Positions 16,678 to 44,255 of a stretch of 64,000 nucleotides of DNA are shown piece after piece. The stretch comes from an uncultured Candidatus Saccharibacteria bacterium (GTDB taxonomy: Bacteria > Patescibacteriota > Doudnabacteria > UBA920): assembly GCA_964490395.1 (NCBI GenBank), contig CAZBAS010000001.1:83815-147814 (forward strand), in the 5' to 3' direction. Each line of letters starts with the position of its first letter. The stretch's first letter is position 1. The notes beneath the pieces were generated by a model that saw only the letters and a list, made by a program, of their open reading frames with translations, was not told where the DNA came from and ran no database searches. The position numbers and the translations under genes are program-made.

Positions 16678-17250
16678 TTACTTCAATGTTTCGGAAATAC
16701 TTTGCAGTACGGTGTCGGTAGTAGGGGATTGTACGGTTATTTCAAATTTTAAAATGGTTTTATTTGGTCTAAAGACAAAATAGGTAATGTTAGGAGTGTT
16801 GCTTGTCTTCTTTGGCACCGCCCCTCCGTAGGTTTGATATATGCCAATGGTAGCTTTTTTATAGTCCAGTTGGCCAGGCTGGGCGCCAAGTCCTGTGTCC
16901 ACTGCTTTGTAAAAATCGTCTACTGTTTTTGGTTGGCCAAATTTGGTCATGGCAGATATCTGTATGGTGCCATGACTGGCTAATTGCTGAGCATTTTGCG
17001 CTTTTCGGTGAACGGTAATGACCTCTTCCCCTTTGGTCTTGGTAGCAACAAAGTCTGGGGGGAGAGTTATGCTGTAACCATAGGTTTTGTTCTGAAACGG
17101 TGTCCAGTCCGCAGTTGGCTTGGGCGCCGGGAGTGGAGCCTTTTGTGTATTTTGGGATGTTTTTACCGGAGTAGTGTTGGTGGTGGCAGGTTTTTTGTTA
17201 CAACCCATGGCAATAAGCACTATTGCACAGAGTAAAACGTACTTTTTCAT
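16678..17250 (-). CDS. Lipoprotein, hypothetical
   Basis: Signal peptide plus lipobox (MKKYVLLCAIVLIAMGC), followed by a Thr/Pro-rich linker. Confidence 0.55.
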   Translation of the reverse strand: MKKYVLLCAIVLIAMGCNKKPATTNTTPVKTSQNTQKAPLPAPKPTADWTPFQNKTYGYSITLPPDFVATKTKGEEVITVHRKAQNAQQLASHGTIQISAMTKFGQPKTVDDFYKAVDTGLGAQPGQLDYKKATIGIYQTYGGAVPKKTSNTPNITYFVFRPNKTILKFEITVQSPTTDTVLQSISETLK

Positions 17251-17283
17251 TTGTGTGTCGAAATTATTTTTTCTTCATACTTA

Positions 17284-18024
17284 TTATACCTTATTTTCAG
17301 GGAGGCTGTCCCACAGGAGCTCAAAAATAGACTTAAATATATCAGTCATGGCTGGGATTTCGATGACTACTGCCAGCGAAGAGAGTTCGGGGCTCACTAT
17401 AAGAATCTTACTCGGGTAAATATCTATTGTGCTTTTAAAAGTATATTGAGGTGGTATGTATTTTACGGTTCTGAGGAGGCCACTGTCAGTAGGGTTGATA
17501 GATCGCGAATCTTCAGTGATAAGAACGCGTGTTCTGATTTGTGCTTTCGCGCGGTTTTTCCAGTAAGATTTGAAAAATTCGGGGTCTATACGTACCCATT
17601 CCAAAGTGCTTCCAACGGTATAGTAGCTTTTTCCTTTGAGGTCGAGCAGTATCTCATTATAAAAGTTTTGCAATTCCGCGACGCTTTCTATGAACCTTAG
17701 GCCAGGGGAAGTATGCATACTATTGTTACCAAGCTTGTTGAGTTCAGGGATAAGGGCTTCAAACGCGTGCAGCTGCTGTTGGTAGTGGTGAGCAAGCTTT
17801 GTCGGGCGTTGCGCCCGGTACTCACGGCGACGACTTTTAAAATTAACGCTTATAAAGCCTTTGGCTGCGAGAGACTTGAGAATTGGATATACCGTAGTCC
17901 GGTTTAATTTTGCAGACTTTGCAACAGCGCTTGCTGGGCCAGCTCCAGACTTTAGGCAGGCCATATACACAATTGCCTCTTGCTCGCTGCAACCCAAATT
18001 GACCAATGATGCAATCGAATCCAT
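17284..18024 (-). CDS. TrmB-family HTH transcriptional regulator
   Basis: N-terminal winged HTH (CSEQEAIVYMACLKSGAGPASAVAKSAKLNRTTVYPILKSLAAKGFI) paralogous to the genes at 1271 and 24873. Confidence 0.7.
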   Translation of the reverse strand: MDSIASLVNLGCSEQEAIVYMACLKSGAGPASAVAKSAKLNRTTVYPILKSLAAKGFISVNFKSRRREYRAQRPTKLAHHYQQQLHAFEALIPELNKLGNNSMHTSPGLRFIESVAELQNFYNEILLDLKGKSYYTVGSTLEWVRIDPEFFKSYWKNRAKAQIRTRVLITEDSRSINPTDSGLLRTVKYIPPQYTFKSTIDIYPSKILIVSPELSSLAVVIEIPAMTDIFKSIFELLWDSLPENKV

Positions 18025-18164
18025 ATGTAAATTATTATCAACACTATTGCCCTAAGTATATAATAGCCCTGTAAATGTAAGCAAATACTCATAAAGAGTG
18101 TCATTAAGTGTTTACAGATGTAGTATATTTCTCTTAACTGTGAATGTAATTAACGACAAAGTAT

Positions 18165-18779
18165 ATGGCCAACAATTTTGTCCCATTAATGTTAGGGGAG
18201 AGTAAGCAGCGGGTCCTAAGTACACTACCCCCCGAAAATTCACTTGACGCAAATAGCGCTCGTATGATTATACGAAGATACGCTGCCGTTTTTGAGGGGA
18301 ATTTCGTCTCGTGGATGTCTGCTGGTGTAATCTCTGCACGCTCGCCCTACGCTCGTTTTGCTGCTACTGAAAACATCTGGGTAGAATTACGCGATAACCA
18401 CCCGGGTATGCTAAAAACGTTTGCCGTTAGTTGTGGGGCACTACCGCACCCTGACGATGTAGTAACGGTATTAGTCGAAGTAGACGCAATCCGTAAATTA
18501 GTAGGAGAGCTATCGGGTATAAAGTGTATTGCACTAATGGCATTTCTGGAGAATACATCAGAAGTATTTATCCCGTATCTAGCATCGCTTGCTCATCGGC
18601 TTGGGAGTAGTAACTATGATTATACTAACGTTCATGGCAAAGCAGATGCTCTCCATGCTGAGCAGTTTCTAAAAGCGCTTGAGGAGGAATCTGTACAGTC
18701 ATACCCTAACCCCCAGGGGGATATAGAAGAAGTATTTTGCAAGGCCTTATTGCTCCTAAAGAGTATATTTGCTATTTAA
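18165..18779 (+). CDS. Putative iron-containing redox enzyme family protein (heme-oxygenase-like fold, PqqC/CADD-like); tentative
   Basis: Motifs YARFAATENIWVELRDNHPGML and LMAFLENTSEVFIP resemble that family. The gene is divergent from the TrmB regulator. Assigned from memory only. Confidence 0.35.
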   Translation: MANNFVPLMLGESKQRVLSTLPPENSLDANSARMIIRRYAAVFEGNFVSWMSAGVISARSPYARFAATENIWVELRDNHPGMLKTFAVSCGALPHPDDVVTVLVEVDAIRKLVGELSGIKCIALMAFLENTSEVFIPYLASLAHRLGSSNYDYTNVHGKADALHAEQFLKALEEESVQSYPNPQGDIEEVFCKALLLLKSIFAI

Positions 18780-18829: not shown

Positions 18830-21577
18830 TTATGCGACAGGCCATTTGGAGATGAGGAGTGGGTCTCCAGAGGAGCGAAGTCCTCGTTCTGTCATGAGGT
18901 TGGTAATATGCTCAGTTATAAATGGCATAAACGGATGCAGTATGTGGAGTATCGCGAGCAATGAGTGCAGCAGTATTTTCTGCGTATTCTCTTTTTGCTC
19001 ACTATTCGCCAACTGTGCTTTTGATGCTTCTATGTAGACATCTGCAAATTCATACCACACAAATTGGTACATGGCCTGGGCAGCTTCGTGCAGCCTAAAT
19101 TCTTCCAGGTGCTCAGTGGCTTCGGCTATGACTATATGCAATTTGCTTAGTATATCCCTATCTGCATCTGTAAGGGGCATTGGCTCTTCGCTTTCCACTA
19201 CCAACTTCCCATTTTCCACTTCTAGGTTTGTCATTACAAACCTGGCTATATTCCACACTTTGTTGGCAAAGTGCTTCATGCCTTTTACTTTTTGTTCATC
19301 AAAGGCTACGTCGTTGCCCGGTCCGCCTCCGTAGGTAAGCGCCATGCGCAGGGCATCGGTTCCGTACTTGGCTATCATGTCGAGTGGGTCAATGCCATTG
19401 TTTAACGACTTGCTAAACTTTCTACCTTGGCCATCTCGTACCATACCGTGCAGCATAACTTGTTTGAAGGGTATTTGCCCGGTTAGGGTAGTCGACATAA
19501 GAATCATGCGTGCAACCCAGAAGAAAAGTATTTCGTATCCTGGAACTACTACGTTGGTTGGATGGAACTGTTTAAAGTCCATTGTTTCGTTGGGCCAGCC
19601 GAGTGTGGAAAATGTCCACAGACCGGAGGAGAACCACGTATCAAAAGTGTCCGGGTCTTGTTCTAAGTTCTCGCCGAAAGGATCTTGAGTAACAATGAGT
19701 GAAGTGAATGACGCGTTAGGAATATTTCCAAGTTTTGTACGGTAGGCTACATACTGCTCTTTCTTTTTACCTTCTAGCCCTGCCATGAGTACGGCGTTAA
19801 AACCCCCGTGGGCAACTACAAGTATCGCGCCATCAGTTTGAAGAGTTTGTAGGTTGGTAATAGTTTTTTGTACACGTTCTTCTATGCTTGCGAGGCTTTC
19901 CCCGGTACCTTCTTTTTGTGCTTGGGCAAACCCGTGTAGGTTCGCATCTTCTGCTTTGCCCATGAGGCTCCCTACATGGATTTCGCTAACTTCATCCCAA
20001 TATTCTATTTCACTTTCAGCAATGCCAAGCTCGAGCGCCACAATGCGCGCTGTTTCTTGCGATCGGCCAAGGTTAGAGGCAATAATTTTTGTGATGTTTT
20101 TGTTGCGTAAGTTGTCTGCCAGTTGCTTCGCCTGGTCTTTCCCAAGTTCAGTTAGGCGCGATTCTGGGCGAGCCAAAATATTCGCGGCATTGTCTTCACA
20201 TTGCGCATGTCGTGCTAAATACACCTGTTGTTCTTTTGGCAAGTGATGGTTGCCTTCCGGGTCGTACCAAACTGGTATCCGGTGACCGAACCAAATTTGG
20301 CGCGATATGCACCAGTCTCTCAGACCGTCTATCCAGTGGTAATAAATCTTTTCAAATCGTTCGGGTAAAATGGTTATAGCACCGCTTTCTACCACATGGC
20401 GCATAAGGCGTTTTAAAGTAACTATATCGCCAGATTGTATGCCGTTAATTTCAGAGTGGGGGAGCGCAAATTCGCGATTAACATCCACAAACCACTGCTT
20501 TTTTATTTGTGGTTCAACAGTACCGCCGCCTCGAGAATTGGTTGCTATACGATGAGCGTATGCCTCGTCTATCTTTTCTACGAGACCCTTTGCTTGCAGC
20601 TTTTCTATTACCAGCGGACGGGCTTTTTTAATGTGTACACCTGCGAGGTCGCCGGCAATAGGGAGGAGCTTTCCTTTATCGTCAATTATTTGTTCGTAGT
20701 CTAGACCGTGACGTTTCGCAATGTCGAAGTCTGTGGCATCGTGCCATGGCGTTATGGTCATAACACCAGTGCCGAAGTCCATATCTATGGCTTCGTCTTT
20801 AATAACAGTTGCGGTTACTGGTCCATTAATCCACTCAAGCTCTATTTTGTCGCCGTGCTTCCACTGTTCGTAACGGGCGTCTGCTGGATGCATAACCACG
20901 TACTTATCGCCAAATTTTGTTTCGGGTCTGGCCGTACCTATGGTAAATGGTCCATATTTAAGATAGTAGAATGGTGTTGTTTCTTCTTTCCACTCTATTT
21001 CATCATCAGAAATAGTTGTTTGCAGTTTTGGGTCCCAGTTCACAATGCGCGAACCTTGGTAGATAAGCCCGAGTTCGTACATGCGGCGAAATGCAGTTTT
21101 CACTGCGCGATTGCGGGTAGCGTCTGCTGTATAAGCTTCCCTGGACCAGTCTACTGAAGCACCCATTTTTTTTACCTGTCCCACTATGGTGTCGTGGCTC
21201 GCTTCAGCAAACTCCTCAATGCGTCTAACCAACTCTTCGCGGCCAATGTCGTATCTGGTCCTTTCTTCCTTTTTGTAAATTTCGCTCTCCACTTTTGCTT
21301 GCGTAGCTATACCGGCGTGGTCTGTACCGGGGAGCCATAGGGCCCGGTGGCCTTGCATGCGCTTAAAACGTACCAAAACATCCTGCACGGTATCTTCGAA
21401 CGCGTGACCCATGTGTAGTGTTCCAGTTACATTCGGCGGCGGGAGGATTATGTTGTACTTAGGCGCATCTTTTTCTATTGGCAAGTTGTCCGGATTAAAA
21501 TATCCGGAGTCGAGCCATTGTTGGTAGATTGCATCTTCTACCGCTGCGGAGTCATAAGACTTTGGAAGTTCTTCCAT
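18830..21577 (-). CDS. valS: Valine--tRNA ligase carrying an internal histidine-phosphatase (PGM-like) domain insertion
   Basis: HIGH motif (PPNVTGTLHMGHAF), CP1 editing domain (TARPET), WFGHRIP, DTWFSS and KMSKS (KFSKS) motifs. About 190 aa are inserted between WGHRIP and DTWFSS. Confidence 0.9.
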   Translation of the reverse strand: MEELPKSYDSAAVEDAIYQQWLDSGYFNPDNLPIEKDAPKYNIILPPPNVTGTLHMGHAFEDTVQDVLVRFKRMQGHRALWLPGTDHAGIATQAKVESEIYKKEERTRYDIGREELVRRIEEFAEASHDTIVGQVKKMGASVDWSREAYTADATRNRAVKTAFRRMYELGLIYQGSRIVNWDPKLQTTISDDEIEWKEETTPFYYLKYGPFTIGTARPETKFGDKYVVMHPADARYEQWKHGDKIELEWINGPVTATVIKDEAIDMDFGTGVMTITPWHDATDFDIAKRHGLDYEQIIDDKGKLLPIAGDLAGVHIKKARPLVIEKLQAKGLVEKIDEAYAHRIATNSRGGGTVEPQIKKQWFVDVNREFALPHSEINGIQSGDIVTLKRLMRHVVESGAITILPERFEKIYYHWIDGLRDWCISRQIWFGHRIPVWYDPEGNHHLPKEQQVYLARHAQCEDNAANILARPESRLTELGKDQAKQLADNLRNKNITKIIASNLGRSQETARIVALELGIAESEIEYWDEVSEIHVGSLMGKAEDANLHGFAQAQKEGTGESLASIEERVQKTITNLQTLQTDGAILVVAHGGFNAVLMAGLEGKKKEQYVAYRTKLGNIPNASFTSLIVTQDPFGENLEQDPDTFDTWFSSGLWTFSTLGWPNETMDFKQFHPTNVVVPGYEILFFWVARMILMSTTLTGQIPFKQVMLHGMVRDGQGRKFSKSLNNGIDPLDMIAKYGTDALRMALTYGGGPGNDVAFDEQKVKGMKHFANKVWNIARFVMTNLEVENGKLVVESEEPMPLTDADRDILSKLHIVIAEATEHLEEFRLHEAAQAMYQFVWYEFADVYIEASKAQLANSEQKENTQKILLHSLLAILHILHPFMPFITEHITNLMTERGLRSSGDPLLISKWPVA
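19660..20230 (-). other. Inserted histidine phosphatase superfamily (phosphoglycerate-mutase-like) domain within valS (residues about 450-640)
   Basis: LARHAQ (RHG-like), LTELGKDQAKQLADNL, SNLGRSQETARIV and LVVAHGGFNAV motifs occur in the canonical PGM-family order. E. coli ValRS has only about 30 aa in this position. Confidence 0.6.
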
Positions 21578-21870: not shown

Positions 21871-21997
21871 AGCTGCAAAAGGGCTTTATAAACTGGGTTT
21901 ATTATACGTAGCAACCCATGTTTTGTAAAGCGCTCTACACGAAACATTGCCTTCGTATTTTGCGTTATACTATATATACAATCATTATCCTTATTCT

Positions 21998-26440: not shown

Positions 26441-27631
26441 TTATTCAAGTTCCCAGTTGCTGTCAGCGGTGACTTTTGTGTAGTCAACGGGTTTGTAGCC
26501 GGCGCGGAGTTTGAAGTAGGCGGCAAGGGCTATCATTTCTGCGTTGTCAGTACAGAGGCGGAAGTCAGGAACGATAAAGTCAGCTCCTAGCTTCAAGCTG
26601 CTAGCGGCTAATGCAGAGCGCAGGCGTTTGTTTGCAGCTACTCCACCAGAGAGGGAAATGGTCTTGCAGTTGTATTGTTTGGCTGCGCGCATGGTTTTGG
26701 TTACGAGTACATCTACTACCGCTTCTTCGAACGACCTGGCAAGGTTTGCCTTGTCTTTTTCTGATATGTGACCAAAGCTCTGGTTGTGGAGGTTTTTCTT
26801 ATTATCCTTTGCCCCTTTTGGTGTAGGGTGTTGTTCTCGCAAATAGTAAAACACTGCTGTCTTAAGTCCCGAAAAAGAGAAGTCGTAACTCTTGTCATGG
26901 ATCATTGGCCTTGGCAGTTGCGCTATTGCTTCGCCCTGCTCTGCAAGCTTGCTTATTTGCGGTCCACCTGGGTAGGGAAGTTCAAGAAGCTTTGCTACTT
27001 TGTCGAACGCCTCACCTGCAGCGTCGTCCACTGTATCCCCGAGCGCCTTATAGTGGCTTTCATTTTTTTGCACCACTAGGGTGGTGTGCTTTCCGCTTAC
27101 TATTAACGACAGTATAGGAAATGCAACCTTCGGCGTATACATCTTTGCCTTTGTTTTGTCTTCTCTTTCATTAGAAATTAGATATTTGACATTAGGCATT
27201 GATTCCCCGAAAGGGGAATATAAATGTCCTTCCATGTGGTTTGTTGCAATGAGTGGAATGCCTGTGGCAAACGACAGAGCTTTTGCAAACTCTACGCCCA
27301 CAAGTAAAGAAGGCATAAGTCCGGGGCCGGAGGTCACGGCAATATAATCAACATAAGCTTGTAGGTTGTAGCTGGTAGCTTGTAGGTTGGGAAACGCATC
27401 ACTTAAGGCTTTTTCAACAACGGGGCGGATGGCCTTTACGTGGGCGCGGGCTGCCACTTCCGGAACCACGCCACCAAATTTACTATGAATTTTAATTTGC
27501 GAGCGAACTACATTTGAAAGTGCTTTGAACGATGGTTGCTTAGCATCTACTATTCCGCGCACAACAGACGCAGCGGTTTCGTCGCAGCTGGTTTCTATAG
27601 CTAAAATTGTCACTGGTTTTTTTGAGGCCAT
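26441..27631 (-). CDS. tsaD: tRNA N6-adenosine threonylcarbamoyltransferase TsaD (Kae1/Gcp family)
   Basis: MASKKPVTILAIETSCDETAASVV followed by the ASKHA fold. It is long (396 aa) and contains a 7-aa tandem duplication (YNLQA..). Confidence 0.9.
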   Translation of the reverse strand: MASKKPVTILAIETSCDETAASVVRGIVDAKQPSFKALSNVVRSQIKIHSKFGGVVPEVAARAHVKAIRPVVEKALSDAFPNLQATSYNLQAYVDYIAVTSGPGLMPSLLVGVEFAKALSFATGIPLIATNHMEGHLYSPFGESMPNVKYLISNEREDKTKAKMYTPKVAFPILSLIVSGKHTTLVVQKNESHYKALGDTVDDAAGEAFDKVAKLLELPYPGGPQISKLAEQGEAIAQLPRPMIHDKSYDFSFSGLKTAVFYYLREQHPTPKGAKDNKKNLHNQSFGHISEKDKANLARSFEEAVVDVLVTKTMRAAKQYNCKTISLSGGVAANKRLRSALAASSLKLGADFIVPDFRLCTDNAEMIALAAYFKLRAGYKPVDYTKVTADSNWELE

Positions 27632-33904: not shown

Positions 33905-35986
33905 ATGACAGATACAAACGAACCAAAAAAATACTCTGTAGAAGAAATACGCAAAACGCACCCGCGCATGGGCATGCGCTGGGACAAAGAAGAGGATGAG
34001 CGGCTTCAGGCAGCGTACAGAGAGTTCCTATCGGAGCAAGGACGTAGCTTCGATCCATTCTTAGACCAGCTGGTAAAAGATTTCGGCCGTGCTGCGGGCG
34101 GTCTTAAGGCACGCCTTGCTATGCATTTCGATGATGTGCCCGGCTGGGATTATGAACAGGACAAGTACCGCGCTGAAGGTTTAGAAAAAGAAGTGGAGGG
34201 CTTATTTAGTCCGGAAAAAGATGCGCTGCTAAAAAGTGAGTATGAAAAGTACGTGTCCACCAAAGCAGAAACGTACTTAGCTTTTGTAAAGCGCATGAAC
34301 GAAGCACTGGGCGGTATAGAGAATAAATATATTCGTCACCGTTTGGAAAAGCTTGTGGGGGCCATAGAAATGTACAAGCGTTCTGACCTGGCTCCTCAAA
34401 AAGCAAAGCGGGCGAGTAACTTGGAAGAACCGCTGGAGAACATAGATTTTTCCGGTAATCCAGAATCGGAAGAAGCGCTGCGCATAATGGATGAAACTAA
34501 CGAAAACCTTTTTCTTACTGGAGAGGCGGGAACGGGTAAGTCCACCCTCCTGCAGTATTTTAGAAGTATTACCAAAAAGAATGTAGTAGTGCTGGCGCCA
34601 ACCGGTGTAGCTGCGCTGAATGTAGGTGGCCAGACCATTCATTCATTTTGCGGTTTTGGGCCGGACATTACGTTGCCAAAAGTAAAGCGCCTCGGGTCGT
34701 GGGCACCAAAGAAAAAGCTTTTGCAAAAGGTGCATACCATAGTCATAGACGAAATATCTATGGTGCGTGCAGACTTGCTCGACTGTGTAGATAAATTCCT
34801 ACGGCTAAACGGCCCAGCAGGGCATATTTCGTTTGGCGGCATTCAAGTGGTGTTTATAGGTGACTTGTTTCAACTTCCTCCCGTGGAGAAAGATTTTGTA
34901 ATGCGCCGCGAATCCGCGCAGGCCGCGGGTTTATTTGACGGTGTAGATGAAGACCCGGATTCAGCTCCTACGCATGCCTCGGCGCATACATACGCTAGCC
35001 CGTACTTTTTTGATTCGCAGGTGTTTCGTACTACCAATTTTCGTCATGTAAGCCTTAAGCACATGTATCGCCAGCACGATCCTGTATTTATAGATGTGCT
35101 CAATGCAGTGCGCAACAATCGCGTCTCGCAGAACCACTTAACTGTGCTGAATAGCCGTGCGCAGTCCCAAGGTACAAAGTTTACGTTTGAACAGTTTGCT
35201 ATATACCTTACCCCCACAAATGCTCGAGCGCGCCAGGTAAACAATTTCTTTTTGGAAAAGATTCCTTCGCCACTTAAAACATACAAGGGTTCTGCTCGCG
35301 GCACGTTTGAAAATAAAGAACTGCCTACCGACCTGGACTTGCAAATAAAAATTGGCAGCCAGGTTATGATGCTAAACAACGACCAGCGCAAGCGTTGGGT
35401 AAACGGCACCATGGGTAAAATAGTTGGCATTGAAAAAGCGGGTGGGTCATCTCCCTTTAAGGCGGGGGCTTCCCCGTCCTTCCCTCCCCAAGCTCTGGGG
35501 AGGGGTAGGGGAGAGGTCGGTCTGACAATGCCCGAGCGGCCGCGAAGTATAGAACAAATAACGGACCCCGATCCATTTTCCTATGAATACATAGACGAAG
35601 AAGTACCGCCAGTTTTTTCCGCAACAGACACCATAGTAATAGAACTGGAAACCGGCGACACCGTATACGTGCAACCTCACACCTGGGAAATGTTTAAGTT
35701 TGTGTTGGACGGTGCAACCCAAAGTTTAGACAGCGAAGTCACTGGGTCGTTTACCCAATATCCATTTAAACTGGCGTGGGCAGTTACCATTCACAAAGCG
35801 CAAGGCAAAACATTTAATAAAGTCTATGTAGACTTAGCCACTGGTACGTTTGCGCATGGGCAGTTGTATGTAGCCCTGTCCCGGTGCCGTACCTTAGAAG
35901 GGCTATACTTAAAAGACCCCATTATGCAGAAGGATATTATTTTGGACAATCGGGTAGTAGAATTTATGAAAAGATTAACAGTATAA
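33905..35986 (+). CDS. Pif1/RecD-family SF1B DNA helicase with an N-terminal extension (Myb/SANT-like W..EEDERL) and a repeat-element insertion
   Basis: FLTGEAGTGKSTLLQYF, APTGVAALNV, IVIDEISMV and VFIGDLFQLPPV motifs. About 55 extra aa relative to the paralogue at 38063 include a GGGGAGG palindromic element (35445..35527). Confidence 0.85.
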   Translation: MTDTNEPKKYSVEEIRKTHPRMGMRWDKEEDERLQAAYREFLSEQGRSFDPFLDQLVKDFGRAAGGLKARLAMHFDDVPGWDYEQDKYRAEGLEKEVEGLFSPEKDALLKSEYEKYVSTKAETYLAFVKRMNEALGGIENKYIRHRLEKLVGAIEMYKRSDLAPQKAKRASNLEEPLENIDFSGNPESEEALRIMDETNENLFLTGEAGTGKSTLLQYFRSITKKNVVVLAPTGVAALNVGGQTIHSFCGFGPDITLPKVKRLGSWAPKKKLLQKVHTIVIDEISMVRADLLDCVDKFLRLNGPAGHISFGGIQVVFIGDLFQLPPVEKDFVMRRESAQAAGLFDGVDEDPDSAPTHASAHTYASPYFFDSQVFRTTNFRHVSLKHMYRQHDPVFIDVLNAVRNNRVSQNHLTVLNSRAQSQGTKFTFEQFAIYLTPTNARARQVNNFFLEKIPSPLKTYKGSARGTFENKELPTDLDLQIKIGSQVMMLNNDQRKRWVNGTMGKIVGIEKAGGSSPFKAGASPSFPPQALGRGRGEVGLTMPERPRSIEQITDPDPFSYEYIDEEVPPVFSATDTIVIELETGDTVYVQPHTWEMFKFVLDGATQSLDSEVTGSFTQYPFKLAWAVTIHKAQGKTFNKVYVDLATGTFAHGQLYVALSRCRTLEGLYLKDPIMQKDIILDNRVVEFMKRLTV
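35445..35527. repeat. GGGGAGG-type palindromic element (ccctcccc-aagctct-ggggaggg..gagaggtcggt) inserted in-frame in the Pif1 CDS
   Basis: It shares CTCCCC-N6-7-GGGGAG-N6-7-GAGAGGTCGGT with the intergenic copy at 62709..62765. It encodes SFPPQALGRGRGEVGL, which is absent from the paralogous helicase. Confidence 0.7.
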
Positions 35987-35991
35987 CTCTT

Positions 35992-36204
35992 ATGAAAACA
36001 AACCTAGTCCCGTATATAGCAAAAAACATAACCATAGTTGTTGCACTTGTTCTTATATGGCGCGGCATTTGGGAGCTTTTGGACAAAATTGACTATGCAC
36101 TATTTGGCGGCAGCCATGTAGTTACAGCGATTGGGGGGATAGTGGTTGGTCTGTTGCTGCTCTATGTACCAGACAAAGACCTGAAAGAAATAGAAAAGAT
36201 GTAG
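35992..36204 (+). CDS. Small membrane protein (70 aa), hypothetical
   Basis: An ATG just after the helicase stop, followed by two hydrophobic helices. Confidence 0.35.
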   Translation: MKTNLVPYIAKNITIVVALVLIWRGIWELLDKIDYALFGGSHVVTAIGGIVVGLLLLYVPDKDLKEIEKM

Positions 36205-36346
36205 TCGCACAAGCAAAGTAAATTTCCAGTGGTCTCGGTGTTTCGTTTTCGCTTTAGAAATTATTTTGCAGCCCACGGAAAAAGGCGCGAAGCCACAACG
36301 CCTTAGCTTGCCCGCTAGGATGCTTTTAAAAAGTAATACGTAAAAT

Positions 36347-36745
36347 ATGCAAACATATTCATGGTACGCACAACTTAGTAAGCCGAGCTGGGCGCCGCCA
36401 AGTTGGCTGTTCGGTCCGGTGTGGACAGTATTGTATGCTGTTGTCGCAGTAAGCTACGGGTACGTAGTGTATTTATATATCCAAAAACGGGTGCCGTTTA
36501 TGGTTTTATTGCCGTTCATATTGAATGTGGTGTTCAACGCACTGTTCACCCCGCTGCAGTTTGGTTTGAAGAGTAATGTGCTTGCCTCGGTCGACATTGT
36601 CCTAGTCCTGGGTACGCTGTTGTGGGCGCTCATTGCTATATTTCCTCATGCCCGGTGGGTTGCGTATGTAAATATTCCCTATGTGTTGTGGGTATGTTTT
36701 GCTACCGTGCTGCAGTTTACTATTACGTATTTAAACCGCTCATGA
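36347..36745 (+). CDS. TspO/MBR-family tryptophan-rich sensory protein
   Basis: LSKPSWAPPSWLFGPVWTVLY matches the TspO N-terminal signature. The protein has five TM helices. Confidence 0.75.
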   Translation: MQTYSWYAQLSKPSWAPPSWLFGPVWTVLYAVVAVSYGYVVYLYIQKRVPFMVLLPFILNVVFNALFTPLQFGLKSNVLASVDIVLVLGTLLWALIAIFPHARWVAYVNIPYVLWVCFATVLQFTITYLNRS

Positions 36746-37458
36746 AATATCTCTATATAGTAGTAGGGCTATGCATTCTGTACGTTGTTGTAGTACTTGC
36801 ACGCTTTGGCTATAAAGTAAGCCATCGCCCTGCCTTGCCGGCAATTGTGCAAACCGATGAAGTGGTTGGCACGGGAAGCGGCCTTCGGTACATAGCAGCG
36901 GGAGATAGTACTGCGGTTGGTGAAGGCGCGAGTAGCGCGGAAGCAACCTATCCTCGCTTAGTACTTACTGAACTTTCTAAAGGCCACACGGTTACTTATA
37001 AGAATGTAGGTGTGTCCGGGGCTAAGACGCAAGATGTTATAGATGCGCAACTCGCTCACATAGTGAGCTTTAACCCGGACATAGTAACGTTGTCTATAGG
37101 GGCAAACGACAGTACCCATTTGTGGTCGCGTAAAACAACACGCATAAACATCCAAAAAATTGTTGCAGAAATAACTAGTAAAACCAACGCTACAGTGTAT
37201 GTAGCCACGGCGCCAAACTTCAGGGGCGGTTGGCTTTTGCCGTGGGTGTACATACAGCTGCTCGAGTTTCGGAACAGTAGTTTAAATAAATCTATATTAG
37301 CATTGGAAACTGACCGGGTAAAAGTGGTAAATGTACACGACTTTGGCTGGGAAAAATTTTCCAGCATGCACGACATATACGCAGCAGATGGGTTTCACCC
37401 TAACGATGCTGGCTATCAAAATTGGGCGAGTGCGTTTCTGACTAGGATTCGAGAATAG
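36742..37458 (+). CDS. SGNH/GDSL-family hydrolase
   Basis: GDS block (IAAGDSTAVG) and the DxxH block (DGFHPND). Its ATG overlaps the TspO stop codon (ATGA), and it has an N-terminal TM anchor. Confidence 0.75.
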   Translation: MKYLYIVVGLCILYVVVVLARFGYKVSHRPALPAIVQTDEVVGTGSGLRYIAAGDSTAVGEGASSAEATYPRLVLTELSKGHTVTYKNVGVSGAKTQDVIDAQLAHIVSFNPDIVTLSIGANDSTHLWSRKTTRINIQKIVAEITSKTNATVYVATAPNFRGGWLLPWVYIQLLEFRNSSLNKSILALETDRVKVVNVHDFGWEKFSSMHDIYAADGFHPNDAGYQNWASAFLTRIRE

Positions 37459-37496
37459 TATGTGTTTCTTCGGTATACAACTAGTGCACATGCAAA

Positions 37497-37521
37497 AGCC
37501 GGCAAGTGTTATCTTGCCGGC
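37497..37521. terminator. Bidirectional terminator hairpin (gccggcaag-tgttat-cttgccggc)
   Basis: 9-bp GC-rich stem with a T-run on the minus strand (ttttgcatg) and a weak T-run on the plus strand. Confidence 0.55.
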
Positions 37522-37531
37522 GTTTATAATG

Positions 37532-37915
37532 CTATCGGTGTTTTTTCTTTCTCTTTGGCATTTTTTCTGCGTACCCAATATCTATGTGGTACTGGGTATT
37601 GGGTGGGCTATCTAAAAATACCGTAAGTGCGCCGAACTGGTAGCCGCTCTTTTCTACAGTAGCAGATGAGTCTCCCTCCAGTTCCACATTTTCAAACTGG
37701 GCAATCCCAGCACTATTTGTATATCGTTTGTACGTGCTATCTATCGTGACAAGTGCGCTCGAGATTGGTTTGTTTGTTCCGCCCTGTTGCACCAGAATGC
37801 TAAAGCTTACTATTTTTGATTTAGACATAGTTTGGGCTTGTGGATCCTGGGATTGGTGGGCACTCAAAAAAGATGCAATCGTAATCAAAACCGATACCGC
37901 ATGGTTCATGGTCAC
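37532..37915 (-). CDS. Secreted hypothetical protein (signal peptide; carboxypeptidase-regulatory-like beta domain)
   Basis: Signal peptide MTMNHAVSVLITIASFLSA. The C-terminus has the K-rich tail KRKKKHR. Confidence 0.45.
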   Translation of the reverse strand: MTMNHAVSVLITIASFLSAHQSQDPQAQTMSKSKIVSFSILVQQGGTNKPISSALVTIDSTYKRYTNSAGIAQFENVELEGDSSATVEKSGYQFGALTVFLDSPPNTQYHIDIGYAEKMPKRKKKHR

Positions 37916-38062
37916 TCCTTTTTTTGTGCGCCAAGGGCGCGTGGAAGGTGTAAGACAAAAGCGTGGTTTTGTCTCGAGATACGCCTAGTATAGTGTTCAT
38001 TTCTATACTATGCAAATATGCATAGCCACAACTACGTAAACACGGTAAAATAAAGTACACAT

Positions 38063-39565
38063 ATGATAATTCTGTTGTTTGCTTTAGCTCTCGTAGTTTT
38101 TGCTCTATTGGTTAGAGAGTTTAAAAAGGGTAAAAAAGTAGCTCGTAGTTCAGGCGGCGACCAGTCGCGTGAGCCAGTGGTGCAGCGTTCCACGCTTGCA
38201 AAGTTCGGCTTGGGTTTTCGCAGGAAAACGCAGCGCGTATTGGTCTTGGAAAAACCAAAGTTAGATCTTACACCAGAAAGCCGGTATGCTCTGCACTTAC
38301 TCGAAAACACCAGACAAGGTGTATTCCTTACGGGGAAAGCTGGTACAGGAAAATCTACGCTTCTTAAGTATTTTCGCGCGACTACAAAAAAGAATGTTGC
38401 AGTAGTAGCGCCCACTGGCGTTGCAGCTATAAATGTGCAAGGTCAGACCATCCATCGCTTTTTCAAGTTTAAACCGGACATCACCGTGGAGACGGTAAAG
38501 CAGTATGTGCCCCGAGAACAGGCGCAGCTCTACAAAAAGCTGGATGTATTGGTCATAGATGAAATATCCATGGTTCGCCCAGACTGGATAGACTGCATAA
38601 ACGCCTTTCTGCAGTTGCATGGACCGCGCCCGGGTCAGTTGTTTGGTGGTGTGCAATTAGTATTCATTGGCGACCTGTATCAGCTGCCACCGGTAGTAAA
38701 GCGTGAAGAAGAACATATTTTTCAAAGCTTTTACAACAGTGAATTTTTCTTTTCTGCCAAGTCGCTCCAAAGCTATCAGTTTGCGCCCATTGAACTTACC
38801 AAAGTCTATCGTCAGTCAGACGCAGAGTTTATAGAAGCGCTGAATGCAGTTCGCGAAGGCGAGGTGGAACACCGGCACCTAGACCTCCTTAACAGCAGGG
38901 TAGATGAAACAGTAACTACAGAAGACAGTGGCGAAGCGCTGCGCATTTGGCTTATGCCTAAAAAAACACAGGTGGCAGAAGTAAACAGTAAGCACATGGA
39001 AGCACTTCCGGGTAAGGGTCGCGTGTACGTAGGCGAAGTGGAAGGTGGTTTTGGCGTAGATGAAATGCCTACCTCGTTTGAACTTCACCTCAAAGAAGGG
39101 GCGCAGGTTATGCTGCTGAACAACGATCCGGGTGGTAAGTGGGTAAACGGCGACGTAGCTAAAGTAGTAGGACTTGGTAGAAACGGTGTGCGTGTGTTGT
39201 TTGAGGACGGGAGCTACGACGACATTGGCCTGCATACCTGGGATGCGTTTCGCCATACGCTAGATGCTACTACGGGAAAAATAGTTGCAGTGAGCGATGG
39301 CTCCTACACGCAGCTTCCGCTCAAGCCTGCCTGGGCGCTGACCATCCATAAGTCCCAAGGGAAAACGTACGACAAAGTAGTGATAGATTTTAGCGAAGGG
39401 GTGCACCATTCTGGGCAGGCCTATGTTGCGCTGTCTCGGTGTAGAAGCCTAGAAGGACTTACGCTTACCGCACCCATACGACGGAGTCATATATTTATTC
39501 ACCCCTTAGTAAAGCAGTTCATGACGCTTGCGTCACAGCGGTCAGAGCAGCTGGTACCAAAATAG
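38063..39565 (+). CDS. Pif1/RecD-family SF1B DNA helicase (paralogue of 33905..35986)
   Basis: VFLTGKAGTGKSTLLKYF, APTGVAAINV, LVIDEISMV and VFIGDLYQLPPV motifs, plus an N-terminal TM segment. Confidence 0.85.
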   Translation: MIILLFALALVVFALLVREFKKGKKVARSSGGDQSREPVVQRSTLAKFGLGFRRKTQRVLVLEKPKLDLTPESRYALHLLENTRQGVFLTGKAGTGKSTLLKYFRATTKKNVAVVAPTGVAAINVQGQTIHRFFKFKPDITVETVKQYVPREQAQLYKKLDVLVIDEISMVRPDWIDCINAFLQLHGPRPGQLFGGVQLVFIGDLYQLPPVVKREEEHIFQSFYNSEFFFSAKSLQSYQFAPIELTKVYRQSDAEFIEALNAVREGEVEHRHLDLLNSRVDETVTTEDSGEALRIWLMPKKTQVAEVNSKHMEALPGKGRVYVGEVEGGFGVDEMPTSFELHLKEGAQVMLLNNDPGGKWVNGDVAKVVGLGRNGVRVLFEDGSYDDIGLHTWDAFRHTLDATTGKIVAVSDGSYTQLPLKPAWALTIHKSQGKTYDKVVIDFSEGVHHSGQAYVALSRCRSLEGLTLTAPIRRSHIFIHPLVKQFMTLASQRSEQLVPK

Positions 39566-39584
39566 ATTTCTACCGCTCTTTGTC

Positions 39585-39700
39585 ATCCTCGCGCATGCGG
39601 GGATCCATATCCCGATGTAGTGTCGGGATAACAGAGTCATTGCCCAGTTGTCCCGCTTCTATAGCGGGACTGGATTCCCGTCTTCACGGGAATGACAGAA
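39585..39700. repeat. Array of three related hairpins (tcccg-N6-7-cggga type) in the 3' UTR of the second Pif1 gene
   Basis: Hairpins atcccgatgtagtgtcgggat, gtcccgcttctatagcgggac and ttcccgtcttcacgggaa, with a flanking ctttgtcatcc..gggaatgacag outer pairing. A related hairpin occurs in the rpoB leader at 4348..4373. Confidence 0.6.
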
Positions 39701-39738
39701 AAAGATTTTTGGAAGGTATCTGATATAAAAATAGAAAA

Positions 39739-39766
39739 CTATGCGAGCAGTTCGCATGGTTTTTTG
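39739..39766 (+). terminator. Rho-independent terminator (atgcga-gcagt-tcgcat plus ggtttttt)
   Basis: Stem-loop plus a T-run downstream of the hairpin array. Confidence 0.55.
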
Positions 39767-40035
39767 TACCGTCATAAAAAAAGAGTATAGTAAAAGAGTA
39801 CAGCATACACATTTTGAAACTTCCACCTCCTGTCATTTCCGCCGTCGCTAAAGCTATGGCGGACAAGGCCGGAAATTACGATGCTTTGAGACCGTGTCCG
39901 ACGAAGCCTTGGCGAAGTTGGAGGGAAGGCCGGAATCCAGTATTCCCAAGACGGATAGCGTTCGAGGACTCGCAGTTTTCGGGGTGACAAGATAGGGGGT
40001 ATGGTAGAGGTATTAGAAACAAAGGAGAAAATTTT

Positions 40036-41427
40036 ATGGAGCTGCGCGATATAACACCTATTCCTACGGTGCCATCTGCACTTATCTATCCTAAAAAGAG
40101 TAAGTGGAAGCCGGTTGTTTTGGCTGTTCTTGTAGTTGGAGTAGTGTGTGTTGGTCTGTGGTATGCCATGCCGCGCATGCTTTCTTTGTTTTTTTCTGGC
40201 GACGAACAAAGTAAAGACGGTTCCAAGTTAGCACTTAGTAAAGTCACTGTCCCGGACAGGAGCAATGGATACTTTAGCCTTTCCAAGTTGACCAATGAAA
40301 CTGTGTTCGTGCCGGAGTCAAATAAGAATATTTATACTGAATACACAAACTACGCAAAACCTGTTTCTTGGAATCAAAATCTGGTAGACTCAGTACTCCA
40401 GAAAAACGCGCAACCACTTGCCGCGTTATCTGACGCAGCAAGTAAGCAGTATTTCCAGTTTCCCAAATATGCAGATCCTGGGAATATAGGCTCTGGTATG
40501 GAGCAGTATCCGCTTGAGGCCTACGAAAAACTAGCTCGCATACAGGCCATACAAGCGCTTTCACTCGCTCGCCAAGGTAAAACAAACGAAGCATTGGCAG
40601 AGGCTGCAAAACTTACTACCCTTGGGCACCATATTATTGTGGGGCACAATAGCTTGCCGGGAAACATGTTGGGCATTGCGGTGCAAAGGCTTGGTTCGGA
40701 AACCATGTTACAAATTCTTCAGCTTGGGAGTCCTGGTAAAGGTGCCTTGCTTAATGCGCTTAAAAAGGTAGATGAGTCTAGTACTACGCAAGAAGGGTAT
40801 GCAGACGCGGTTCGTTTCGAGTATGCATATGTAGTGGGGTCTATAGGCGCTTCTGTAAGCGCGCAGTTGCAAAGGGATATAGACCGCATGGCAACAGAAG
40901 GGTTTATTACTCGTTCTGTGGCAAAATACGCAAAGCACGGCTATTACTACAAGCCAAATCAAACCAAAGATTTATTTACCGAACTATTTACTGCGGAGCT
41001 CAGTCGGGTGGGGCAGGAGTGCACCATGCGTACGAGTACAGGGTCTAAAGCGCACAAGGTACAAGGGTGGAGGACCGTGTTCACCGAAAATGTAGTGGGC
41101 AAACTTTTGTTTTCCGCGTACGATAGTTCGCTTGGGGGCGTCTTCGCAAAGCAGTGCCAAAATGATTTAGCGTTAAATGTTGCCAAGGCCGAACTGGGGC
41201 TTGCGCTCTATAAAGTAGACCATGGGGTGGTTCCTGCAAGTTTAGATAAGATAGTCCCAGACTATATGCCGGCATTGCCCACGGACCCATATAGCAAACA
41301 GCCCCTTCACTACAACGCAAAAGATAAGCTTTTGTATTCGGTCGGGGAGAAAAAGCAGGACCTAGGCGGCAGTAGCGGCGAAGACTGGGCAGCCATGGAA
41401 AACCCTACATTTCACTTCTCGTTTTAA
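40036..41427 (+). CDS. Hypothetical membrane-anchored protein (N-terminal TM, large extracytoplasmic domain)
   Basis: The Shine-Dalgarno sequence aaggag lies 8 nt upstream. A single TM helix (VVLAVLVVGVVCVGLWYA) is present, with no recognised catalytic motif. Confidence 0.5.
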   Translation: MELRDITPIPTVPSALIYPKKSKWKPVVLAVLVVGVVCVGLWYAMPRMLSLFFSGDEQSKDGSKLALSKVTVPDRSNGYFSLSKLTNETVFVPESNKNIYTEYTNYAKPVSWNQNLVDSVLQKNAQPLAALSDAASKQYFQFPKYADPGNIGSGMEQYPLEAYEKLARIQAIQALSLARQGKTNEALAEAAKLTTLGHHIIVGHNSLPGNMLGIAVQRLGSETMLQILQLGSPGKGALLNALKKVDESSTTQEGYADAVRFEYAYVVGSIGASVSAQLQRDIDRMATEGFITRSVAKYAKHGYYYKPNQTKDLFTELFTAELSRVGQECTMRTSTGSKAHKVQGWRTVFTENVVGKLLFSAYDSSLGGVFAKQCQNDLALNVAKAELGLALYKVDHGVVPASLDKIVPDYMPALPTDPYSKQPLHYNAKDKLLYSVGEKKQDLGGSSGEDWAAMENPTFHFSF

Positions 41428-41487
41428 CCTATCGCGCGTATAGCTAAAAAGTACTACTATATATACAGAAGTAGTATGTAAAATGTA

Positions 41488-42288
41488 TTGTCTATGAATA
41501 AAAAAGGCATATTTGCTGGGTTTGTAGTTGCAGTGCTAGCTATAGGTGCCCTTGTGGGTTTCTGGCTTACTGCAAAAGACGTAGCACCCAAGCCAATTAC
41601 AAATACCATCACCCCTGGGCCTGTTCCTGTAGCAGAACCGCCTGCTCCAACTCCCGCGCCACCAGTTGCGGGTACGATGTTTGAAAACGCTTACATGAAA
41701 GTAACAGTTCCGCAAGGCTGGGCACTTACCGAAGTAACGGAAACTTTGCAAGACCAGCGGTACGACCAGGCCACAGGTAAAACCATAAAGGTGGGTGAAC
41801 CAAAGACTACTAAGAATGGTGCTGTAAATATTACCAAAGGGAAATATATTTTATACGTTCACCCCCAGGCAGGGCAGGCAAGCGGGGTAGATGGCGGCCG
41901 CTTTGCCGAAATTGCTATGGGTGCGCCTAGTGCGGACGCGGTAGTTGTGGAACAACCCAGTCCTCCCTGTGGTACAGAAAAAACCAGCGCAGTAAAAGTT
42001 GGGTGGACTCGCCACGACTGGTTTGTGAGCAGTGCGGATAAAAAGGACTATTGCGCAGTACCAAGTGGTAGTAGCGCCGTGTGGTATTTTTCCTACATTA
42101 CCGACTCTAAAAATGGCTACATAAACTACTACAATGCAGGCAGCCTTCCAGGGTGGGTTATAACTATGGGTTACAACTCTAAAACCGTAAATTCGCTTCC
42201 AGCTCAAAATAGTCCTGAACTTACCACAGCCCTTACAGAAATGACCAACATAGTAAAAACTCTAGAACTAAAACAGTTAGGTAAATAG
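41488..42288 (+). CDS. Hypothetical membrane-anchored or secreted protein
   Basis: N-terminal TM or signal sequence (IFAGFVVAVLAIGALVGFWL) and a Pro-rich linker. Confidence 0.5.
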   Translation: MSMNKKGIFAGFVVAVLAIGALVGFWLTAKDVAPKPITNTITPGPVPVAEPPAPTPAPPVAGTMFENAYMKVTVPQGWALTEVTETLQDQRYDQATGKTIKVGEPKTTKNGAVNITKGKYILYVHPQAGQASGVDGGRFAEIAMGAPSADAVVVEQPSPPCGTEKTSAVKVGWTRHDWFVSSADKKDYCAVPSGSSAVWYFSYITDSKNGYINYYNAGSLPGWVITMGYNSKTVNSLPAQNSPELTTALTEMTNIVKTLELKQLGK

Positions 42289-42294
42289 CACAGC

Positions 42295-42325
42295 AGTGGC
42301 AAAGGTACTCTTTGCCACTTTTCAA
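42295..42325 (+). terminator. Terminator (agtggcaaag-gtact-ctttgccact plus tttcaac)
   Basis: Stem-loop. It belongs to the same GTGGCAAAG palindrome family as 43220..43252. Confidence 0.5.
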
Positions 42326-42333
42326 CATTAATA

Positions 42334-43209
42334 ATGTATATGGAAATACTGAAAGCAACCACGGAGGATGGTTTAAAATTTTCTGGCTTATACGTTAAGC
42401 CTGCGGAGCCTTCACAGAAAATTGTTATTCACCTTCATGGTATGGCGGGTGACCCGTATTCTAATGCATTTTTGCCGGCTATGTTTTCAGCTTACCCGGC
42501 TGCAGGTGTGGCGTTTTTATCCGTGGAAAACCGAGGTACGCATAGCGTGACACAGTTTGGGACTACCACTGGTGGCGTTCGTTTAGTGGGGGATGCATAT
42601 GAGAAGTTTGAAGACTGTGTGCATGACATTGCGGCATGGATAAATGTGGCTAAACAGTTGGGTTACACAGAAATTTGGTTACAAGGACACAGCTTAGGTT
42701 GTTCCAAAGTGGCGTACTATGCAAGTAAGGTGGCTCAGAGTGGGGTAGTAGGCTTACTGCTTGTAAGTCCATCCGATATGCTGGGCTGGAACTTAGCACC
42801 GGCCATGATTGCGGATCATACATTTTTGCTCAACGAAGCCAAACAGTTGCAAGCCAATGGTCAGGGCCGCGTCATGCTGAGTAAGTTAGTAGATGGCGAA
42901 ACTCCTGTATGCGCAGACACCTATGTAAGCTTGTTTGGAGAGGGTGCCGGCGATGCGATATTTAATTTTGGCAACCCGGAACTTGGGTACGAAACGCTGA
43001 GGAGTATTGCGGTACCTGTGCTAGCCTTTACAGGAACGGACGACGCCGGCGTTACTAGTTCAAGCGAGCCGCTCAAGGCTATGCGCATACTAGAGCAAGA
43101 GTTAGTTCAGTCGCCCCGCAAGAAGACAGTTATATACGAAGGCGCCAAACACGACTTTGCCGGATTTGGGGAGCGTATAGTTGAAGAAGTTCTTAGTTTT
43201 ATTAAGTAA
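42334..43209 (+). CDS. Alpha/beta-fold hydrolase
   Basis: GHSLG nucleophile elbow (WLQGHSLGCSKVAYY) and an HGMAGD oxyanion-region-like motif. Confidence 0.65.
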   Translation: MYMEILKATTEDGLKFSGLYVKPAEPSQKIVIHLHGMAGDPYSNAFLPAMFSAYPAAGVAFLSVENRGTHSVTQFGTTTGGVRLVGDAYEKFEDCVHDIAAWINVAKQLGYTEIWLQGHSLGCSKVAYYASKVAQSGVVGLLLVSPSDMLGWNLAPAMIADHTFLLNEAKQLQANGQGRVMLSKLVDGETPVCADTYVSLFGEGAGDAIFNFGNPELGYETLRSIAVPVLAFTGTDDAGVTSSSEPLKAMRILEQELVQSPRKKTVIYEGAKHDFAGFGERIVEEVLSFIK

Positions 43210-43219
43210 TTATATTCCG

Positions 43220-43252
43220 CGGTGGCAAAGGGTGCCTTTGCCACCGTTTTAT
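43220..43252 (+). terminator. Rho-independent terminator (cggtggcaaagg-gtg-cctttgccaccg plus ttttat)
   Basis: 12-bp stem plus a T-run. Confidence 0.7.
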
Positions 43253-43305
43253 ATTCATGAGTCGCTCAGAAATGTGGAGTCCTATTTAATAGGAGGGTAT
43301 AGTAT

Positions 43306-44160: not shown

Positions 44161-44165
44161 CCTAA

Positions 44166-44192
44166 AAAGAGCCCTTACACGGCTCTTTTTTG
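44166..44192 (+). terminator. Rho-independent terminator (agagcc-cttacac-ggctct plus tttttt)
   Basis: Stem-loop plus a T-run. Confidence 0.6.
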
Positions 44193-44255
44193 TTCGCCAC
44201 AATATGGAAAATGGGGTAAAATTTATCTTATACTCTAGGTTTGTTGAGTAATTTT

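Follow-up and report, generated by a model that had tools for sequence, protein, structure and literature searches.

A predicted histidine phosphatase domain nested in the catalytic core of a Patescibacteria valyl-tRNA synthetase, one case of a recurrent architecture

Few enzymes are as conserved as the aminoacyl-tRNA synthetases, and the bacterial ones are taken to carry only editing and tRNA-binding modules; new catalytic domains in synthetases are thought to be mainly eukaryotic and to be added at the termini. The valyl-tRNA synthetase (ValRS) of Thermus has a short cysteine knuckle at connective peptide 3 (CP3). Histidine phosphatases are already known from bifunctional enzymes: the RNase H/acid phosphatase (Rv2228c type, NF005567) and PFKFB (6-phosphofructo-2-kinase/fructose-2,6-bisphosphatase) each combine a His_Phos domain with another enzyme in one chain, both as end-to-end fusions. 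It is also known that class Ia synthetases accept nested modules, which their Rossmann folds take at the connective peptide (CP) sites (PMC10810186, PMC7191050). CP3 is the link between CP2 and the second Rossmann half; it varies in topology and is sometimes a cysteine-rich zinc finger (PMC7191050, PMC10810186). Histidine phosphatases, and with them phosphoester hydrolysis, are absent from the 15 class I insertion modules that have been catalogued (PMC10810186). An isoleucyl-tRNA synthetase (IleRS) with an added enzyme domain has been curated in NCBIfam as 'isoleucine--tRNA ligase, N-acetyltransferase domain-containing' (NF040702). Here we describe valS in a 64,000-nucleotide stretch (the window) of contig CAZBAS010000001.1, positions 83,815 to 147,814, from an uncultured Patescibacteria bacterium of the candidate phyla radiation (CPR). 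Its product is a ValRS with a predicted histidine phosphatase domain nested at CP3, by the same principle of nesting at CP sites that is seen in the CP1 editing domain and the CP3 zinc finger of class Ia synthetases.

The gene and its parts are listed below in window coordinates, with the corresponding amino acids (aa) of the product.

18830..21577, minus strand: valS, the complete gene for ValRS (915 aa), coordinates including the stop codon; open reading frame (ORF) uninterrupted
20264..21577, minus strand: ValRS aa 1-438, comprising the first half of the Rossmann fold with HIGH, then the CP1 editing domain, CP2, WCISRQ and the IPVWY strand (Pfam tRNA-synt_1 stretch 17-488, motifs and invariant columns)
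21404-21415, minus strand: HIGH motif, as HMGH, aa 55-58
20918-20935, minus strand: TARPET of the CP1 editing domain, aa 215-220
20237..20266, minus strand: N-terminal arm of the native CP3 hairpin, YDPEGNHHLP, aa 438-447 (junction comparison; VWYKGxxxYVG... in insert-less relatives)
19670..20236, minus strand: nested His_Phos_1 domain, aa 448-636 (PF00300; Pfam envelope aa 452-630, 19688-20224)
19625..19669, minus strand: C-terminal arm of the CP3 hairpin and DTWFSS, aa 637-651 (junctions, motifs)
19178..19624, minus strand: second Rossmann half with the KMSKS loop and stem-contact fold, aa 652-800 (Pfam, motifs, alignment)
19406-19420, minus strand: KMSKS loop, as KFSKS, aa 720-724
18839..19162, minus strand: anticodon-binding domain, aa 806-913 (PF08264, E=4e-28)

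By its sequence, the host is a complete class Ia ValRS, predicted to be functional in aminoacylation. It exceeds the cut-offs of two NCBIfam valS equivalogs, NF004349 (848 bits versus 704) and TIGR00422 (812 bits versus 612), each match being broken into two stretches by the insert; the equivalog score, the class I motifs, CP1 and the anticodon-binding domain identify the protein as a valine--tRNA ligase. K720, S722, K723 and S724 are invariant in the ValRS alignment (A1), and the residues of the other synthetase motifs are likewise invariant. A full-length AlphaFold2 model, built on a 70-sequence alignment, has a predicted local distance difference test score (pLDDT) of 91.3 and a predicted template modelling score (pTM) of 0.87. 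Its best structural match is 1GAX, the ValRS of Thermus thermophilus (E=1.8e-56, template modelling (TM) scores TMq 0.68/TMt 0.72). The window protein shares HIGH, KMSKS, the CP1 editing domain, CP2 and the anticodon-binding domain with 1GAX and with ordinary bacterial ValRS, and differs from them in carrying a 189-aa enzyme domain at CP3 and in having no C-terminal coiled-coil arm; a Pfam scan of the protein gave no match to PF10458 after the anticodon-binding domain. As neither the arms of the hairpin nor any synthetase motif is disrupted, the enzyme would be expected to continue charging tRNA-Val despite the insert.

The insert lies between the IPVWY strand (aa 433-438; the WFGHRIPVW block is aa 429-437) and DTWFSS (aa 646-651), a position that corresponds to the tip of the CP3 hairpin. 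WCISRQ and DTWFSS are 218 aa apart in the window protein versus 34-35 aa in most Patescibacteria ValRS, so that the extra material amounts to about 185-190 aa. A sequence-only reading of this stretch had counted about 190 residues between the WFGHRIPVW and DTWFSS blocks and had placed there, at 19660-20230 (about aa 450-639), a histidine phosphatase domain of the phosphoglycerate mutase family inside the catalytic core of an intact ValRS. Sequence, predicted fold and relatives bear this out, and the limits can be refined to 19670-20236 (aa 448-636). In the whole protein PF00300 matches with 109.5 bits (cut-off 21.7; E=2.1e-31) over profile positions 1-182 of 194, and this match interrupts the tRNA-synt_1 match, leaving it in two pieces. 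The excised segment alone, for which the sequence-only reading had suggested this same profile, gives a full-length match with E=9.9e-33. Chance or misread motifs are excluded because of the Pfam E-value of 2e-31 and the splitting of the tRNA-synt_1 match by the domain.

The CP3 hairpin of insert-less relatives has 17-31 residues and the consensus VWYKGxxxYVGxxxPxGxxWxQDxDTLDTWFSS. In the same region the window protein reads VWYDPEGNHHLPKEQQ-[phosphatase]-DPFGENLEQDPDTFDTWFSS. The junction sequences, ...HHLPKEQQ/VYLARH... and ...QDPFGENLEQD..., are extended arms of the native hairpin, and since both arms are present the domain is nested at the hairpin tip. D641, D643, T644 and D646-S650 are invariant in all 51 insert-bearing sequences (51/51), and GC content is continuous across the insert. 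Comparison with relatives shows that the window protein lacks a CP3 cysteine knuckle; in a second set of homologues (24 sequences) the domain is nested within an intact CxxC...CxxC knuckle.

All the motifs named in the sequence-only reading are where it had put them, in an uninterrupted ORF: LARHAQ (aa 454-459), LTELGKDQA (aa 475-483), SQETARI (aa 506-512) and LVVAHGG (aa 586-592) in the insert, and HIGH, TARPET and KFSKS in the host. The catalytic set of the domain is given below with residue counts from the alignment of 51 insert-bearing ValRS, across which identity to the window's domain is only 19-91%.

20204..20212, minus strand: RHA motif R456-H457-A458, a variant of RHG; H457 is the predicted phospho-acceptor; R in 49/51, H in 51/51
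20189..20191, minus strand: N463, phosphate-pocket Asn; 50/51
20063..20065, minus strand: R505, second catalytic Arg, in GRSQETA; 51/51, invariant versus free-standing phosphatases
19982..19984, minus strand: E532, predicted general acid/base, in EIHVGS; 50/51, invariant versus free-standing phosphatases
19808..19810, minus strand: H590, second catalytic His, in VAHGG; 50/51, invariant versus free-standing phosphatases

A set of 102 domains at the CP3 site (site B) retains the catalytic residues in 90-100%; position 458 is Ala in 22 of these and Gly in 75. Alignment with 25 free-standing phosphatases (184-216 aa) matches the insert end to end, with R9, H10, R58, E85 and H143 (insert numbering) invariant and the pocket Asn, N16, present in at least 90% of the 25. 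A subgroup of the inserts (P0139, P0141, P0157, P0162, P0322 and P0333) has VHG or AHS in place of RHG, with loss of the first Arg, and keeps all the remaining catalytic residues (YFVHGxTxDNE type).

Against the 89%-identical orthologue on a syntenic contig, the insert has a dN of 0.046 and a ratio of nonsynonymous to synonymous substitution rates (dN/dS) of 0.051, and the host has a dN of 0.078 and a dN/dS of 0.043, both ratios being approximate because host dS is near saturation. By these ratios, purifying selection on the insert matches that on the host in strength. The sequence-only reading had allowed for a decayed insertion; for this gene that option is refuted by the conserved catalytic residues and the dN/dS of 0.05. 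A genuinely decayed remnant, in P0153, looks quite unlike the window insert: it is a degenerate low-complexity segment of about 110 aa from which RHG and the second His are gone. Between the window and its relative L084, dS by the Nei-Gojobori method (NG86) is 0.91 in the insert versus 1.79 in the rest of valS, and identity at four-fold sites is 0.55 versus 0.42 (z ~2.2); in the L003/L004 pair insert and host are equal, and other pairs are saturated. The lower synonymous divergence of the insert in the window/L084 pair could be noise near saturation or could mean that the insert was exchanged more recently, as would be expected of a recombining cassette. Across the window's clade the identity of the inserts (0.40-0.91) is about as high as that of the hosts, or higher.

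The insert region has a pLDDT of 89-98 in the full-length model, and a model of the insert alone has 84.7. Structural neighbours of the insert-only model, at TM 0.6-0.75, are GpgP Rv2419c, RosC, CobC, a riboflavin-pathway phosphatase, phosphoserine phosphatases, PhoE, PGAM5 and the fructose-2,6-bisphosphatase domain (1TIP), that is, members of the phosphatase type and no mutases. GpgP, RosC, CobC, PhoE, PGAM5 and the fructose-2,6-bisphosphatase match with probability 1.00; for the first five of these TM is 0.65-0.75. A sequence search of solved structures returned CobC, PhoE, GpgP, phosphoserine phosphatase and two deposited phosphoglycerate mutases (1fzt, 9mmh). The models show, with high confidence, a full-length domain with a predicted independent alpha/beta fold. 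The extra residues are accordingly not a ValRS linker devoid of the histidine phosphatase fold, an outcome that the sequence-only reading had considered. Profile, catalytic set and alpha/beta fold all place the insert in branch 1 of the histidine phosphatase superfamily.

Within that branch the insert attains no NCBIfam subfamily equivalog cut-off. Cofactor-dependent phosphoglycerate mutase was rejected on the scores of GpmB NF002901 (61-66 bits versus 261), dPGM_arch NF038349 (54-59 versus 225) and NF002339 (29-34 versus 316). Alpha-ribazole phosphatase CobC (TIGR03162) was also rejected, at 70-75 bits versus a cut-off of 162.9, though it is the top-scoring named subfamily; SixA gives a partial match only and misses its NCBIfam cut-off. 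The NF005567 match is 50-54 bits. Sequence and modelled fold together identify the domain as a divergent member of the family, predicted to be of the phosphatase type and to belong to its PhoE/CobC/GpgP-like part. The free-standing phosphatases PhoE/YhfR (1H2E), CobC (6E4B/6NRU), GpgP Rv2419c (4PZ9), RosC and phosphoserine phosphatase (4IJ5) have the same fold and the full catalytic set. They are also alike in size (185-210 aa), and free-standing proteins of 184-191 aa can be aligned with the insert over its entire length; it differs in being only 30-38% identical to them, in having a shorter cap and in being nested in another enzyme. The Rv2228c-type proteins and PFKFB resemble it in the covalent joining of His_Phos to a second enzyme. 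Unlike them, the window's domain is nested in a loop of another enzyme's catalytic fold, that of an aminoacyl-tRNA synthetase.

The same architecture is present in many relatives. The window protein itself is in the public sequence collection that was searched, on an NCBI contig. Among the best 120 full-length hits, 50 clusters at 52-89% identity carry PF00300, and the remaining ones are ValRS of 713-963 aa without it. Inserts of equal length occur in six GTDB species genomes (70-74% identity), and several more distant GTDB genomes (L007-L011, L014) also have the insert. In L014:4762-7565 the His_Phos domain is split over two overlapping frames, by a frameshift or a long-read sequencing error. 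An exhaustive phmmer search over 1.84 billion cluster representatives gave about 37 clusters (50% identity) with a stretch covering most of the flank-insert-flank query, that is, a best aligned stretch of at least about 190 of 282 residues; truncated cases are additional. The same in-frame architecture is found across many independent assemblies from JGI, ENA, NCBI and Logan. Whether the insertion was lineage-wide had been left by the sequence-only reading to comparison with related ValRS, and the comparison shows that it is: the insert is inherited across a whole clade and occurs in dozens of related uncultured lineages.

A host-only neighbour-joining tree interleaves insert-bearing and insert-less ValRS, and close insert-less sister lineages are present. 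In many insert-bearing lineages the domain is only 19-43% identical to the window's, while free-standing phosphatases average 32%. Because the hosts are interleaved and many of the inserts are no closer than free-standing phosphatases, several gains or exchanges plus losses are suggested, in a number that a distance tree at such divergence cannot count. Origin from a neighbouring gene was rejected, as there is no free-standing His_Phos ORF within about 6 kb of valS at 80 loci, nor in the window; the 64-kb window also contains no second class I synthetase and no second valS. The nearest free-standing homologue (P0385, 191 aa, 34% identity) lies in L081:4786-6952 between a Fic-domain gene and a small Ada_Zn_binding gene, and the pairing of a phosphatase of this type with an Ada_Zn_binding gene is seen again on a second contig, L082. 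Where public names are shown, they go no further than 'valyl-tRNA synthetase' (JGI) or 'class I tRNA ligase family protein' (NCBI, three records). No published description of the architecture was found in the full-text literature searched, which agrees with the sequence-only reading's view that it was previously unremarked.

Individual reading of the hits, with domains mapped by a hidden Markov model built from the inserts, reveals three His_Phos insertion sites in ValRS. Site B, the CP3 tip, accounts for 108 cases in the sample. Site A lies directly after the QWF strand and before the CP2 helices (P0121, P0122, P0125, P0140). Site C is situated between STLGWP and FHPT..LETG (P0032, P0159, P0192); the proteins with this insertion have an intact CP3 zinc knuckle or hairpin, and their three domains are closest to each other. 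Some ValRS (P0121, P0122, P0125, P0127, P0140) have two to four His_Phos copies, in tandem at CP3 and/or at site A, with four copies in P0121. One copy in such proteins often lacks the catalytic Glu or a His. A further protein, P0259, is an IleRS with a DUF5915 C-terminus and two His_Phos copies at the site equivalent to CP3, and because of it the phenomenon extends beyond ValRS. The window case is thus one of a recurrent architecture with three sites, multiple copies, and both ValRS and IleRS as hosts.

Some lineages combine the phosphatase with a second module. The ValRS of L011:3203-6970 (1256 aa) has His_Phos and an alpha/beta-hydrolase (Ser_hydrolase) at CP3, and that of L010:4768-8424 (1219 aa) has His_Phos and an ASCH-like module; both keep the coiled-coil arm. 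In L010, P0138, P0141 and P0167 the module that accompanies the phosphatase gives full-length ASCH hits in hmmscan just below threshold (E 6e-4 to 0.57), and BLASTP of these four modules against a bona fide ASCH-bearing ValRS was negative; for these reasons they are named only ASCH-like. A Pfam ASCH domain occurs elsewhere in the catalytic domain, without a phosphatase, in P0330, P0361 and P0365. At the CP3 tip of P0300, P0334 and P0355 there is a module of about 140 aa in which a GKTxTYRLRD motif was recognized by eye.

The reading that we favour, and to which we give about an even chance, is that of a bifunctional ValRS with an autonomous phosphomonoesterase module, for which the synthetase is a permissive, essential carrier. 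A compact histidine phosphatase domain of about 185 aa sits at the tip of the CP3 beta-hairpin of a complete ValRS. By the established chemistry of the family, it would hydrolyse phosphomonoesters through a phospho-H457 intermediate, with R456, R505, N463 and H590 holding the phosphate and E532 as proton donor. Its substrate would lie outside the aminoacylation reaction; we know of no role for a histidine phosphatase or for phosphoester hydrolysis in aminoacylation or editing. The ValRS would serve as a constitutively expressed as well as an essential and permissive carrier. An autonomous module is favoured because the CP3 tip also hosts small hydrolase-like domains of unrelated families (alpha/beta hydrolase, ASCH or ASCH-like) in other lineages, because diverged versions with two to four copies exist, and because the nearest solved relatives act on small molecules. 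The existence of close insert-less sister lineages argues that the module is not integral to aminoacylation. Two observations weigh on the other side. Members of one family have been captured at three ValRS loops and in IleRS, which a passive carrier does not predict and which hints at coupling with the synthetase. The cap segment from E532 to the GES motif is also short by about 10 residues (27 versus 37 in the nearest free-standing relatives), and a shorter cap in this family would suit a bulkier substrate.

These two observations, the capture of the domain at surface loops of the ValRS catalytic domain and at the equivalent site in IleRS and the short cap, would be better explained if the nested phosphatase acted on the synthetase's own macromolecular partners as a built-in repair or anti-toxin activity, a possibility that we regard as serious but rather doubtful. 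One task could be to clear the tRNA 3' end of a phosphate or pyrophosphate that blocks it, as after toxSAS damage; another could be to reverse HipA-type inhibitory phosphorylation of the synthetase's KMSKS serine. There are precedents for the damage to be repaired: HipA and HipT phosphorylate GltX and TrpS (PMC6581861, PMC8262856), and toxSAS toxins pyrophosphorylate the tRNA CCA end (PMC11559606, bioRxiv 10.1101/2021.04.30.441581). Co-insertion with ASCH-like modules (PUA-like, putatively RNA-binding) in several lineages points the same way, as does the presence of protein phosphatases in the family, with PGAM5 among the structural neighbours and a partial SixA match. The sister lineages nevertheless do without the insert, several diverged copies per protein are hard to reconcile with a single repair task, and the nearest solved relatives are small-molecule phosphatases. 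Moreover, there is no kinase or toxSAS gene among the window ORFs that were scanned against Pfam, a scan that took in part of the ORFs. The more specific proposal, that repeated capture by ValRS and IleRS represents built-in repair or immunity against phosphorylation-based translation toxins, at the tRNA 3' end or on the synthetase, is improbable in our estimation.

Still somewhat less probable is a module that does no catalysis, that is, a structural, tRNA-binding or ligand-sensing element that binds a phosphorylated ligand without turnover and replaces the CP3 or zinc knuckle. CP3 is variable and is often a zinc finger implicated in tRNA handling (PMC10810186, PMC7191050), the cysteine knuckle has been lost in the window protein, and the second copies that lack Glu or His imply that non-catalytic copies can persist. 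The six residues of the catalytic set are, however, kept in 49-51 of 51 sequences at domain identities of 19-91%, which is typical of retained catalysis, and the decayed remnant P0153 is of quite different appearance. An artefact or a selfish element, whether an assembly chimera, an intein-like sequence or a recent mobile insertion without a role, is effectively refuted. Inteins too are inserted in highly conserved parts of essential genes, and four-fold-site identity is marginally higher in the insert in one pair (the z of about 2.2 noted above), but a second close pair has no synonymous-site difference. The chimera is rejected by the in-frame recurrence of the architecture over many independent assemblies. 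An intein-like element, which the sequence-only reading had named as a way for its proposal to fail, is rejected likewise: Pfam reports no Hint/intein family on the protein and the junction residues are those of ordinary hairpin arms. The unbroken GC content and the deep within-clade divergence under purifying selection also speak against a selfish origin.

The window is otherwise an ordinary chromosomal stretch with rpoB, rpoC, a P-type ATPase, a UvrD-like helicase, TrmB-like regulators and tsaD. A gene for a large He_PIG surface protein adjoins valS, and gene order is mostly common to the window and the 89%-identical relative. The window contains no tRNA gene and no Rfam family. Three further features lie near or within valS.

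21901..21929, minus strand: promoter-like site TTTACA-17-TATAAT (11/12), about 320 nt upstream of valS; a consensus match, the count of such sites in the region not being above shuffled expectation
19344-19688, plus strand: ORF overlapping valS, antisense
19854-20246, plus strand: ORF overlapping valS, antisense

The two plus-strand ORFs were treated as mechanical because they lie within valS, a strongly supported gene, on the opposite strand. In the interval from valS to the P-type ATPase (16678-18779) the window has three genes where the relative (L083/L084) has one of about 190-200 aa; they encode a 204-aa Haem_oxygenas_2-like protein, a TrmB-family regulator and a 190-aa lipoprotein-like product, and the region is a small local rearrangement. 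The TsaD homologue (26441-27631, minus strand) has 396 aa (406 aa in L083). The split of its Pfam match into two pieces suggests that this universal tRNA-modification enzyme, too, contains an additional segment of about 50-60 aa. On the plus strand, 33905-48263 contains two PIF1-like helicases (33905-35986 and 38063-39565) and a 1340-aa fused ResIII helicase/Eco57I-type methylase (44241-48263) and is likely a cluster of mobile or defence genes.

The ValRS described here has a second, unrelated and predicted catalytic centre nested in the Rossmann fold of an essential bacterial synthetase, and this arrangement recurs in many CPR lineages. Relative to the literature searched, the combination of phosphatase and synthetase, the nesting in the catalytic core and the recurrence across CPR lineages are new. 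Annotation is affected, since the names of the three NCBI records for insert-bearing relatives do not mention a phosphatase. If the domain is a passenger, it would illustrate how genome-reduced bacteria load their essential genes with further functions, and protein engineering would have a natural site in the CP3 hairpin tip. If it is instead coupled to the tRNA or the synthetase, it would represent a new layer of translational quality control or toxin resistance, and in the case of immunity these bacteria would have a charging enzyme that is resistant to phosphorylation-based translation toxins.

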